From IMG/VR virus record IMGVR_UViG_2695420747_000011, positions 1-14,262 of that record: DNA of 14,262 nucleotides; one strand, written 5' to 3'. Origin of the DNA: a virus. Taxonomy: Duplodnaviria; Heunggongvirae; Uroviricota; Caudoviricetes. Shown in pieces: positions 7,753-8,582 of the stretch. A program made the translations under genes and the position numbers. The number at the start of each line of letters is the position of its first letter. The first letter of the stretch is position 1. The notes under the pieces are model-generated. The model was given only the letters and a program-made list of their open reading frames with translations, was not told where the DNA came from and did not search any database.

Positions 7753-7815
7753 GGTAACAATAGTTACATAACAATGTCAACCATAGCAACATCACTTGGT
7801 AGTAACATTGGTTAC
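7753..7815. promoter_or_regulatory. divergent switch region with two operator palindromes of GGTAAC-N4-GTTACC type
   Basis: GGTAACaataGTTAC at 7753-7767 and GTAACattgGTTAC at 7802-7815. On the minus strand a TTGACA hexamer (plus 7775-7780) lies between them as a candidate -35 for cro transcription. The second operator abuts the repressor ATG at 7816. Confidence 0.55.
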
Positions 7816-8490
7816 ATGAAAAACACTATCAGCGAACGTATTCGGAATCGTCGAAAAGACGTTGGATTAACCCAACAGCAGGTTGCGAAAGCAATCGGCA
7901 TATCTCGTGTATCCGTAACAAAATGGGAAAATGGCTCTTCAAAACCTGACGGTGAGAATTTGTATCTACTGTCAAAATTGCTTTCCAAATCTCCTGAATG
8001 GATTCTTTATGGAAAGGACGGTCACGATAAAGCCGATGATCTGCGTCTGAATCAGTACCCTTACATTAGTGACAACATCGCCCGGTTGCCCGTTTTAACG
8101 TGGGAACAGGCTGGTTATTGGGATATGAGTTGTCCAGTAACCGAGATTCCTGGTATTAAGAATTGGGTTGATGTCATGACAAAAACCGCTGAAAACTCTT
8201 TTTTATTGCATGTTGAGGGAGATGCGATGACAAACTCTAACGGCCTCCCAACCATCCCCGACGGATCTACCGTGCTGATCACACCATGCTCAAGTAACAT
8301 TAGAGAACTGGTGGGAAAAATAATCTTAATCCAATTGGAAGGAACGCCAAACGTAACACTAAAAAAAGTTGCGATTGACGGACCAAACATCTATCTGTTG
8401 TCACTGAATCCGCTTTACAAACCCATCGAACTTAATGGTGGTTACACCATTAAAGGTAAAGTTTCACAAATACATCAATACTTAGACTGA
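7816..8490 (+). CDS. cI: CI-like prophage repressor (N-terminal HTH_XRE + C-terminal S24/LexA-like peptidase domain; catalytic Ser position is Ala)
   Basis: HTH VGLTQQQVAKAIGISRVSVTKWENG. The C-terminal domain aligns by eye with lambda cI: HVEGDAMT against VEGNSMT, and VTLKKVAIDG against FTFKKLIRDSG. An Ala-Gly (EQAGYW) sits in the linker. Start set at ATG 7816 because the track start 7717 would put both operators inside the coding sequence; no SD is evident upstream of 7816. Confidence 0.8.
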   Translation: MKNTISERIRNRRKDVGLTQQQVAKAIGISRVSVTKWENGSSKPDGENLYLLSKLLSKSPEWILYGKDGHDKADDLRLNQYPYISDNIARLPVLTWEQAGYWDMSCPVTEIPGIKNWVDVMTKTAENSFLLHVEGDAMTNSNGLPTIPDGSTVLITPCSSNIRELVGKIILIQLEGTPNVTLKKVAIDGPNIYLLSLNPLYKPIELNGGYTIKGKVSQIHQYLD

Positions 8491-8495
8491 GTCAG

Positions 8496-8521
8496 AACCC
8501 GCATTCATTGCGGGTTTTTTA
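8496..8521 (+). terminator. Rho-independent terminator after the repressor gene
   Basis: AACCCGC-attcatt-GCGGGTT followed by TTTTTT, 6 nt after the TGA at 8488-8490. Confidence 0.65.
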
Positions 8522-8552
8522 TGCCCTCGAATGTACCTTTTGCAACATTGTA

Positions 8553-8582
8553 TTGACTCGAAAGGTAACTCTTGTTACCTTA
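8553..8582 (+). promoter_or_regulatory. candidate early promoter for the rightward (dicB-type) operon with embedded operator
   Basis: TTGACT at 8553-8558, then a perfect GGTAACtcttGTTACC palindrome at 8564-8579 overlapping the spacer and -10 region. A degenerate copy (GCAACATTGTATTG) lies at 8542-8555. The -10 hexamer itself is poor. Confidence 0.45.

Follow-up and report, generated by a model that had tools for sequence, protein, structure and literature searches.

We identify in a 14,262-nt stretch of viral DNA (hereafter the window) what is, with a probability of roughly three in four, an immunity switch with five operators (OR1-3 and OL1-2) and a leaderless maintenance mRNA, built like the immC regions of phages P22 and 21. 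The host element is a ~50-51-kb lambdoid (lambda/P22-like) prophage of E. coli inserted in ompW, and its Pfam gene set fits an immunity switch: an HTH_3 plus Peptidase_S24 repressor, a P22_Cro protein and YdaT. The cI/C2-like repressor gene (7816..8490, + strand; 224 aa; HTH_3, E = 3.5e-17; Peptidase_S24, E = 9.5e-17; lambda cI, PDB 3BDN, E = 4e-14) and the cro-like gene (7509..7724, - strand; 71 aa; PF14549, E = 2.9e-16), which is the first gene of the PR operon and has a strong Shine-Dalgarno (SD) sequence (AGGAG; duplex energy, -7.4 kcal/mol), are divergent, with a control region of 91 bp between their ATGs. The design seems ordinary and the operator specificity apparently uncharacterised so far; nothing relevant came up in the literature under the operator motif, ZF40 operators or the RefSeq accession.

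The strong sites are palindromes matching the 16-bp pattern GGTAAC-N4-GTTACC with one mismatch at 7753-7768 (GGTAACAATAGTTACA), two at 7801-7816 (AGTAACATTGGTTACA) and none at 8564-8579 (GGTAACTCTTGTTACC). The 10-base core, GTAAC-N4-GTTAC, is intact (10/10) in all three, against 0.33 core matches expected by chance per window, and 0 of 200 shuffles reached three. By a weight matrix made from relatives only, the sites score 24.2, 20.5 and 19.9 bits, respectively, the best site in shuffled sequence averaging 8.9 bits. All three flank the repressor gene at promoter positions. The initial annotation had reported this dyad twice between cro and the repressor and once past the terminator, and had suggested a search for it across the prophage. 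Each of these copies is present with a perfect core, and a scan of the whole ~51-kb prophage found no further 10/10 or 9/10 match, such that the dyad is confined to the repressor-flanking region at the level of at least 9/10; matches of 8/10 occur at chance level (19 seen, 19.1 expected). A degenerate fourth copy that had been placed at 8542-8555 did not hold up: it matches only 5/10 core positions, in the wrong register and not at a conserved position, and it was dropped as an operator, the conserved weak site being 8532-8547.

We compared 13 distinct loci, gathered via a protein database, from E. coli, Salmonella, Hamiltonella, Kosakonia, Pectobacterium phage ZF40, a Klebsiella phage and Pantoea phage AH07; their repressors are 42-98% identical, and the loci are related phylogenetically, so that counts overstate independence. 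A scan of genome contigs with the repressor gave two unrelated HTH matches only (Ruminococcus, Onthoplasma), and megablast of the region against a phage collection matched the downstream PL leader only, with no match in the immunity region. When the 13 loci are aligned without gaps from the repressor ATG, only the three dyads and the promoter hexamers are conserved and the intervening DNA is free to vary; the OR sites keep their centres at -55.5, -32.5 and -7.5 relative to the ATG.

OR1 (7753..7768; GGTAAC-AATA-GTTACA) is strong, occurs at the same offset in 13/13 relatives and is centred 55.5 bp upstream of the repressor ATG, at about -16.5 from the predicted PR start. The candidate PR -10, TACCCT (7751..7756, - strand), is preceded by TGn (extended -10) and consists of the half of OR1 nearer to cro and two bases beside it; TAC(C/A)(T/C)T stands at this position in 13/13 relatives. 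Across an 18-bp spacer lies the PR -35, TTGACA (7775..7780, - strand), which is TTGACA in 7/13 relatives and TTTGC(T/G/A) in 6/13. OR3 (7801..7816; AGTAAC-ATTG-GTTACA) is also strong, its core match equals that of OR1, and it ends on the A of the repressor ATG; this abutment, pointed out in the initial annotation, recurs in 13/13 relatives. Between the two is a weak OR2 (7776..7791; GTCAAC-CATA-GCAACA; 6/10 core), whose centre lies 23 bp from that of OR1 and 25 bp from that of OR3; it was absent from the initial list of sites. OR2 is placed by positional conservation only: in the window alone it is not above chance by the relatives' weight matrix, and across the 13/13 loci its offset holds a 5-8/10 match with sequences that vary by lineage (8/10 in L014, L018 and L019). 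Some of the OR2 conservation could stem from the PR -35, with which the left half of the site coincides.

Downstream of the repressor gene, folding identified an intrinsic terminator of the repressor transcript (8494..8520, + strand; 10-bp stem, 5-nt loop and T run; -15.1 kcal/mol, z = -4.45, 0/200 shuffles equally stable), and every relative that retains PL has a hairpin with a T run there. In 11/11 relatives with PL the elements follow one another as terminator, OL2, -35, OL1/-10. OL1 (8564..8579; GGTAAC-TCTT-GTTACC), the perfect dyad, had been described as overlapping the spacer of a TTGACT promoter-like site, and it indeed fills both the 17-bp spacer and the -10 of PL. The PL -35 is TTGACT (8553..8558, + strand; TTGAC(T/A/C) in 10/11 relatives, TTGATC in one), and the candidate -10, with TGn before it, is TACCTT (8576..8581, + strand; TAC(C/A)TT in 11/11). 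Like the PR -10, this hexamer (TACCYT for the two) comes from an operator half-site; the predicted starts lie near 8588 (+ strand) for PL and near 7744 (- strand) for PR. OL2 (8532..8547; TGTACC-TTTT-GCAACA, TGTACCTTTTGCAACA; 7/10) is a weak site just before the PL -35, with 32 bp between its centre and that of OL1, and is likewise placed by positional conservation only; its score of 6.3 bits in the window alone does not exceed chance, and its position is occupied in 11/11 relatives with PL, strongly (8-10/10) in L008, L011, L012, L014, L015, L018 and L019. The OR/OL design proposed at first is upheld by this fixed placement in relatives, with five sites instead of three plus a fourth. PL would drive a DUF1391-DicF-DicB-exonuclease-xis-int operon; a permissive Rfam search of the PL leader found DicF and sub-threshold terminator look-alikes only. 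Promoters were defined by conservation among relatives, and we infer PR and PL activity from these conserved hexamers. A generic sigma-70 scan of 7400-8900 detected no promoter, because all three -10 hexamers match the consensus at 3-4/6 only, and it missed the terminator too.

The repressor mRNA is probably leaderless, beginning at its own ATG. No SD precedes ATG 7816: the duplex with the 16S tail is worth -3.0 kcal/mol, compared with -5.7 to -7.5 kcal/mol for cro, ydaT, DUF1391, exonuclease and int, and the repressor starts of 11/13 relatives fall between +0.6 and -3.8 kcal/mol. A candidate PRM -10, TAACAT (7803..7808, + strand), lies inside OR3, 7 nt before the ATG, and TAnnnT occupies -13..-8 in 13/13 loci, whereas OR1/OL1 have it at the matching register in 1/24 (Fisher p = 4e-9, calculated on loci that are not phylogenetically independent). 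The conservation of TAACAT is confounded by its also being part of operator OR3; where the operator itself differs, the hexamer reads TAACCT, TAATCT or TAACGT. The predicted PRM start is the A at 7816, at a C-A (pyrimidine-purine) step. The absence of an SD, together with ATG 7816 as the true start, makes a leaderless message well supported. The initial proposal to this effect is borne out in the missing SD, the TAnnnT 7 nt before the ATG and the invariant start codon, and the 5' end itself is a prediction.

An unlikely alternative is that the sites are operators as described, and that the maintenance mRNA starts upstream, or the sole transcript of significance stems from a YdaT-activated PRE-like promoter within cro/ydaT, ATG 7816 being translated behind a leader that has no canonical SD. 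Such a transcript would fit the lack of a recognisable -35 for the candidate PRM (ACCATA at 7780-7785) and the weak pairing that GGT, three nt before the ATG, provides; a near-perfect YdaT site (TTGATTTTCATGAATCAT, 7502-7519) also suggests an establishment promoter with a leadered transcript. However, the exact 7-nt spacing of TAnnnT in every locus, operator variants included, and the pyrimidine-purine step at the predicted start argue for initiation at the ATG, leaderless repressors are established in lambda and CP-933P, and neither a promoter scan nor inspection by eye found another + strand -10/-35 pair in 7725-7800. For the leaderless PRM, lambda-style class II activation from OR2 was not adopted: OR2, centred at -32.5, would overlap any PRM -35, unlike in lambda, and such activation is therefore not to be assumed.

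Judging by its homologs, ATG 7816 is the real repressor start. The Met is invariant in 16 homologs, the codon is ATG in 13/13 loci, and distant homologs of 215-221 aa begin at the equivalent Met without an N-terminal extension. The PGAP (NCBI) annotation WP_000103686.1 begins instead at an in-frame ATG at 7774 (238 aa), a codon that the initial annotation had overlooked. This start would put the dyad at 7801-7816 within the coding sequence and shrink the control region to 49 bp. We consider this very improbable, although the frame is open and the gene calls for the close relatives P0001-P0003, P0005 and P0006 all give 238-240 aa. ATG 7774 arises as the opposite-strand reading of the PR -35 (TTGACAT); in four relatives (L011, L013, L014 and L018) the extension contains in-frame stops with no upstream start codon, yet the DNA elements persist. 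The conserved 'MST' of the extension is exactly what the PR -35 (TTGACAT) gives when read on the other strand, 'NIGY' corresponds to the OR3 dyad, and the residues between them vary freely. SD pairing is also worse at 7774 (+0.9 kcal/mol), and the 224-aa form is already used in some NCBI records. The 7774 start was rejected on the strength of the stops in four relatives, the invariant Met at 7816 and the origin of the codon in the PR -35. The longer ORF from TTG 7717, which the initial annotation had named as a possible objection to the start at 7816, was also rejected, as it overlaps the cro start and is interrupted by stops in relatives.

The GTAAC-N4-GTTAC palindromes are almost certainly the binding sites of the repressor, with Cro presumably a second ligand of the same operators. 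In an alignment of homologs, the recognition helix SRVSVTKWE is invariant in all those with GTAAC sites. Heteroimmune relatives with the helix NRVTVTGWE carry GTAGG-N4-CCTAC half-sites in the same layout, and P22/21 (SNVAISQWE) have their known operators in this layout as well, with 23/25-bp spacing between centres and the last site ending at the ATG of MNTQLMGERIR. This co-variation of half-site and helix, with the fixed placement of the dyads in relatives, makes the OR/OL operator reading strongly supported, and it is indirect support for the predicted binding by the repressor. That the dyads are chance palindromes, or sites for Cro alone or for a host factor, is scarcely credible, for even though Cro-family proteins normally share the operators of the repressor, and sequence alone cannot separate the two, no shuffle gave three matches, the sites flank the repressor gene at promoter positions kept in 13 loci, and the half-site changes with the repressor's own helix in heteroimmune relatives.

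We propose that the cI/C2-type repressor and the P22-type Cro would be transcribed divergently from the control region, with strong OR1 over the PR spacer and -10, weak OR2 over the PR -35, and strong OR3 over the PRM -10 and start; perfect OL1 would act inside PL and weak OL2 just upstream of the PL -35, both past the terminator. Here we infer from sequence the binding of proteins, the activity of promoters, the position of the transcript 5' end, and cooperativity or activation, if any. Repressor at OR1/OR2 would silence PR (cro, ydaT and the replication genes), repressor at OL1/OL2 would silence PL (DUF1391, DicF, DicB, exonuclease, xis and int), and repressor at OR3 would limit its own synthesis. 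With TAACAT in OR3 as the PRM -10, transcription would begin at the A of the ATG, and the maintenance mRNA would therefore be leaderless, as are those of lambda cI and CP-933P PaaR2.

With its divergent repressor and Cro genes, repeated operators over promoters, and OL/PL beyond the repressor, the switch is by sequence comparison a P22 immC-type member of the lambdoid family with an uncharacterised specificity. Over 95% of its length the repressor shares 36% identity with those of P22/21 (the N-terminus of P22 C2 was confirmed by alignment with PDB 1ADR) and Cro belongs to the P22_Cro family; in both systems there are three OR sites, the repressor-proximal one ending exactly at the repressor ATG, and a terminator after the repressor followed by an OL/PL cluster. 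The recognition helices differ (SNVAISQWE in P22/21, SRVSVTKWE here), as do the operators, which are of an 18-bp ATTTAAG...CTTAAAT type (ATTTAAGATGTCTTAACT-type) in P22/21 and 16-bp GTAAC-N4-GTTAC here, and the switch is therefore predicted to be heteroimmune, outside the P22/21 immunity specificity. P22/21 also have OL1-3 where two OL sites are recognisable here, a cII-type protein where the prophage has a YdaT-type protein, an N/nut system that is not visible here, and a catalytic Ser that is replaced by Ala.

The likeness to lambda extends to divergent PR/PRM promoters, three operators, OL/PL past the repressor gene, an HTH plus S24 repressor and, as for cI, no SD and a -10 placed for a start at the A of the ATG. 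Relative to PR the sites lie at about -16.5, -39.5 and -64.5, essentially the lambda geometry. Relative to PRM, the lambda OR sites lie at about -19/-42/-66, whereas all three are ~10.5 bp (one helical turn) closer here (-7.5/-32.5/-55.5), so that the -10 and the start point fall under OR3, with OR2 overlapping the -35 position. Operator sequence and length also differ from lambda, and OL and OR are ~0.8 kb apart, compared with 2.3 kb.

The CP-933P prophage of E. coli O157:H7 has a 97-bp control region and a repressor mRNA for which 5' RACE and N-terminal sequencing showed the absence of a leader (PMC8630535). As here, its Cro-like (YdaS) and YdaT genes lie opposite the repressor (PaaR2) across a ~90-97-bp control region (PMC8630535, PMC9986795), and a PL-like promoter has the same operators as the control region. 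The CP-933P YdaT inverted repeat, TTGATT-N6-AATCAA, occurs at the cro/ydaT junction, and the copy in the window (7502-7519) has 1 mismatch. Unlike the S24 cI-type repressor described here, which is followed by a terminator, PaaR2 is small, lacks an S24 domain and precedes a paaA2-parE2 toxin-antitoxin pair; the CP-933P repeats are 18-bp palindromes, four in all and set at even intervals, with a different half-site consensus (GTTTAGTAA). The two systems have only the Cro/YdaT arm and the YdaT site in common, and the switch is not of the CP-933P type. Pectobacterium phage ZF40, Klebsiella phage ST101-KPC2phi6.3 and Pantoea phage AH07 share GTAAC-N4-G(T/G)TAC dyads at the same OR/OL offsets and the same or nearly the same helix (SRVSVTKWE; SRVTITKWE in ZF40), while their repressors are 42-43% identical and their cII-type genes and PL operons differ; a search of the literature on these three phages found no operator analysis.

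The catalytic Ser of the repressor is replaced by Ala (GDAMT; codon GCG at 8224-8226), aligned opposite S149 of lambda cI, and both the Ala-Gly cleavage site (QAG) and the catalytic Lys (TLKKV) are kept. With Ala in place of the nucleophile, the repressor is predicted to resist SOS-induced self-cleavage; of the Ser/Lys dyad used in RecA-stimulated self-cleavage, the Ser is missing. Three diverged clusters are fixed for Ala (39/39 members read), one of E. coli/E. albertii, another of E. coli and one of Salmonella at 70% identity, whereas a sister cluster of E. coli, 88% identical, has retained Ser in 15/15. If the Ala reading holds, the Ser/Ala state would have changed at least twice, which would suggest selection on inducibility. 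Tentatively, the repressor may be a naturally non-cleavable cI, by which a widespread, apparently near-complete DicF/DicB prophage is held under a switch that is SOS-proof with respect to self-cleavage.

These results give a concrete operator, GTAAC-N4-GTTAC, and a five-site map for an immunity type that occurs in >700 complete E. coli genomes and in sequenced Pectobacterium, Klebsiella and Pantoea phages, and a likely regulator is identified for the DicF sRNA and the division inhibitor DicB in the copies that this prophage carries. The annotated repressor start is corrected: the 14-residue N-terminal extension in RefSeq is artefactual and stems from the PR -35 hexamer. Gene callers are led astray by leaderless starts both ways, with ZF40 cI annotated too long and phage 21 cI too short. 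If the proposal is true, PRM would also operate here with OR2 nearer by one helical turn than in lambda. Wider interest attaches to the Ser-to-Ala repressor alone, and the understanding of lambdoid switches is otherwise unchanged.

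The repressor gene (7816..8490, + strand) is flanked by copies of a dyad whose core, GTAAC-N4-GTTAC, is perfect in each: OR1 (GGTAACAATAGTTACA, 7753-7768) and OR3 (AGTAACATTGGTTACA, 7801-7816, adjoining the repressor ATG) on the cro side, and OL1 (GGTAACTCTTGTTACC, 8564-8579) past the gene. Against 0.33 such dyads expected by chance (≤2 mismatches), three were found, a number reached in 0 of 200 shuffles. With a symmetrised weight matrix trained solely on sites of relatives, they reach 24.2, 20.5 and 19.9 bits, respectively; the next-best match in the window has 6.75 bits and the best match in shuffled sequence averages 8.9 bits. 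The three dyads claimed in the initial annotation are real, and they occur only beside the repressor gene, on either side of it: no other 10/10 or 9/10 match occurs across the whole prophage (the window plus a further 36.6 kb), where 8/10 core matches appear at the chance rate. Weaker sites are OR2 (GTCAACCATAGCAACA, 7776-7791), in the middle of the right operator, and OL2 (TGTACCTTTTGCAACA, 8532-8547), the degenerate first dyad of the left operator. A fourth copy previously placed at 8542-8555 covers just the right half of OL2, in the wrong register. The left operator has two recognisable sites, 32 bp apart in the window (31-35 bp across the family) and ~0.8 kb from the right operator. A further operator-like element (AATACTTCGAGTTACC, 8622-8637; 7/10, with a perfect right half-site) lies 58 bp 3' of OL1; it is identical in two relatives (L004, L009), similar in a third (L008), and may be a third weak left site or merely part of a conserved leader.

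For comparative analysis, a protein search yielded 45 clusters of homologs, and DNA was taken for nine clusters and four sequenced phages. The recognition helix S-R-V-(S/T)-(V/I)-T-K-W-E is invariant in 16 aligned proteins, and in every locus with this helix the cro ATG lies 90-95 bp from the conserved repressor Met, except in ZF40, where the annotated cro start gives 70 bp. In an ATG-anchored gapless alignment of 13 loci, only the dyads centred at -55.5, -32.5 and -7.5 and the promoter hexamers are conserved, while the DNA between the dyads differs in all 13 sequences. OR2 is weak throughout (5-8/10 core positions), with a constant offset. On the left side, 11 of the 13 loci share the order terminator hairpin with T run, first dyad, TTGAC(N), second dyad, and the first dyad is a 9-10/10 site in four of the relatives (L008, L014, L015, L019). 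A third good dyad occurs 32-34 bp 3' of OL1 in a Klebsiella phage (AGTACCGGTAGTTACA, about 1679-1694 of L018) and in L015 (AGTAACTGTAGTTTAC, about 1135-1150); the number of left sites therefore varies across the family. Two loci, from Salmonella (L006) and Kosakonia (L013), have a complete right operator and no recognisable left operator or PL 3' of the repressor, where other genes are found, which suggests remodelled or decayed prophages.

Heteroimmune relatives keep this architecture, with helix and half-site changed together. mEp390 and vB_EcoM-720R4 (helix NRVTVTGWE) carry GTAGG-N4-CCTAC, one copy of which adjoins the ATG, and vB_EcoM-689R6 (SDVAVGYWE) carries CTAAG/CTTAG repeats. In phage 21, whose immunity region is that of P22 (helix SNVAISQWE), the annotated operators are 18-19 bp long, their centres spaced by 22.5 and 25.5 bp, and the last terminates exactly at the ATG of MNTQLMGERIR, an N-terminus that matches the solved P22 C2 N-terminal domain. 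This co-variation is the best computational evidence available that the repressor uses the dyads as its operators, and it also shows that the element follows the P22 immC plan.

The predicted early promoters overlap the outer operators. PR (- strand) has a -35 TTGACA (7780..7775), an 18-bp spacer and a -10 TACCCT preceded by TGn (7756..7751). Transcription is predicted to start near 7744, leaving about 20 nt to the cro ATG, and cro has a good Shine-Dalgarno (SD) sequence. On the + strand, the TTGACT (8553-8558) noted initially as promoter-like at the perfect dyad is followed after 17 bp by TACCTT (8576-8581), also preceded by TGn, giving PL a predicted start near 8588. This -10 is formed by the distal half of the second left dyad plus TT, reading TAC(C/A)TT in 11 of 13 loci. 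A generic promoter scan reports no promoter here, because the -10 hexamers match the consensus at T1, A2 and T6 only; they are nevertheless kept in 13/13 loci (PR) and 11/11 (PL). Since OR1 and OL1 fill the spacer and -10 of PR and PL, bound repressor would exclude RNA polymerase. The PL leader (8588-8762) is long (~175 nt) and conserved, with GTAAGTAGCCAGCCCGAGGCGTAAGAACATGACGGC common to L004, L009 and L008; a related block, GAAGTAGCCGCC...GGCGTA(A/T)GAA, follows PL in ZF40, AH07, L012 and L014. The leader has no Rfam match, the window has no N gene, and a boxA (CGCTCTTTAA) occurs only in L011/L012.

Measured from the predicted PR start, the operator centres are placed like those of lambda (about -16.5, -39.5 and -64.5). 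Lambda operator centres lie at about -19, -42 and -66 relative to PRM; here, if PRM starts at 7816, the values are -7.5, -32.5 and -55.5, roughly one helical turn closer. OR3 would then cover the -10 together with the start point, while OR2 would overlap the place of the -35, where the hexamer (ACCATA) is poor. P22 and 21 share this compact geometry. As the core match of OR3 equals that of OR1, strong negative autoregulation by the repressor is plausible.

A candidate PRM -10, TAACAT (7803-7808, + strand), consists of the OR3 left half and the next two bases, and 7 nt past it is a C-A step whose A is the first base of ATG 7816. T-A-n-n-n-T is present at this position in 13/13 loci, even where the operator has drifted (TAACCT, TAATCT, TAACGT), compared to 1/24 in the same register of OR1 and OL1 (Fisher p = 4e-9, ignoring the kinship of the loci). 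This points to an extra constraint on OR3, fitting a -10 element. The abutment of the right-hand site on the repressor ATG, part of the earlier reading, is kept across the 13 loci (centre -7.5), and the reported lack of an SD holds as well: pairing of the 16S tail to the 20 nt before ATG 7816 is weak (-3.0 kcal/mol vs. -5.7 to -7.5 for cro, ydaT, DUF1391, exonuclease and int) and ranges from +0.6 to -3.8 kcal/mol in 11 of 13 loci. Lambda cI is a precedent for a leaderless repressor mRNA. Another comes from the prophage CP-933P, which shares the Cro/YdaT arm: 5' RACE, combined with N-terminal sequencing and mass spectrometry, showed that its PaaR2 mRNA has no leader (PMC8630535). We put the probability that the repressor is expressed leaderless from PRM at roughly 0.75-0.8.

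The NCBI pipeline (PGAP, WP_000103686.1) starts the repressor at ATG 7774 (238 aa), and for close relatives most gene callers likewise choose the long start. This start is very probably 14 codons too early. Met 7816 is invariant, and distant homologs (215-221 aa) all start there; ATG 7774 has no SD (+0.9 kcal/mol); and in four loci (L011, L013, L014, L018) the frame is closed by a stop 7-13 codons before the conserved Met, with no intervening start and the DNA elements kept. The sole conserved 'residues' of the extension are MST, ATG 7774 included, which is the PR -35 (TTGACAT) in reverse complement, and NIGY, the OR3 dyad (AAC ATT GGT TAC), while those between vary freely. A still longer ORF from 7717 is excluded, as its TTG overlaps the cro start codon. 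The annotation of ZF40 cI is longer still and runs into cro, and that of phage 21 cI is too short, beginning at an internal ATG that has a ribosome-binding site; SD-less starts appear to mislead gene callers both ways.

Alongside the predicted leaderless PRM mRNA, a long-leader establishment transcript probably exists too, given a YdaT-type site (TTGATTTTCATGAATCAT, 7502-7519) at the cro stop/ydaT start junction with one mismatch to TTGATT-N6-AATCAA, the site of YdaT (CII-equivalent) footprinted in CP-933P. There, YdaT binds the OM site beside a PRE-like promoter at the equivalent junction. A TGn-TATCCT -10-like element (7538-7546) would place the YdaT-type site near -42 relative to a promoter on the + strand, and the two together are a candidate PRE.

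The repressor has HTH_3 and Peptidase_S24 domain matches, with the S24 nucleophile replaced by Ala137 (motif VEGDAMTN; codon GCG, 8224-8226), whose counterpart in lambda cI is S149 of GNSMT. Both the Ala-Gly site and the TLKKV Lys remain intact. Among motif-bearing representatives, Ala is found in clusters P0001 (499 members), P0002, P0004 and P0005 (Salmonella, 70% identical, codon GCA), and among motif-bearing members read from P0001, P0002 and P0005 in 39/39. In P0003, a sister cluster from E. coli (88% identical), 15/15 members have Ser, as does every distant homolog. By C-terminal-domain identity the window, P0002 and P0003 form a star; P0005 lies outside it, and P0006 further out, which implies at least two changes of the Ser/Ala state. 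The S149A form of lambda cI is unable to cleave itself; by analogy, this repressor should be insensitive to RecA-mediated (SOS) induction.

An E. coli chromosome (NZ_OZ547136.1) contains the whole window at 100% identity, and the 1.2-kb immunity segment occurs in 702 of 5,426 complete E. coli genomes (≥80% coverage). The lambdoid prophage (~50 kb, integrated in ompW) encodes terminase, capsid, tail, lysis, a Q-type antiterminator, int and xis. Domain matches identify P22_Cro-family (7509-7724) and YdaT (7087-7512) genes on the - strand, followed by a replication-initiator-like gene (6102-7079, -). The early region on the PR side also contains a hokD/sok type I toxin-antitoxin locus (1705-2030, -; Rfam sok, 117 bits). 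By folding, the repressor transcript ends in a strong hairpin (8494-8518, -15.1 kcal/mol, z = -4.45) with a T run after it. Further 3', all on the + strand, are DUF1391 (8763-8915), DicF sRNA (9789-9840; Rfam 76.7 bits, full-length), dicB (about 10015-10203), a large 3'-5' exonuclease, xis and int. DicF and dicB are likewise present in the Qin prophage; here both lie within the predicted PL operon, so the repressor would govern both an inhibitor of cell division and an sRNA that acts in trans.

In the searched literature we found no paper on this operator or repressor protein; the ZF40 papers found concern its anti-CRISPR locus. The earlier reading holds up, and the region is an ordinary P22-immC-type lambdoid switch of uncharacterised immunity specificity. 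Its practical value lies in start-codon annotation, in pointing to the regulator of a DicF/DicB prophage operon and possibly in the non-cleavable repressor.
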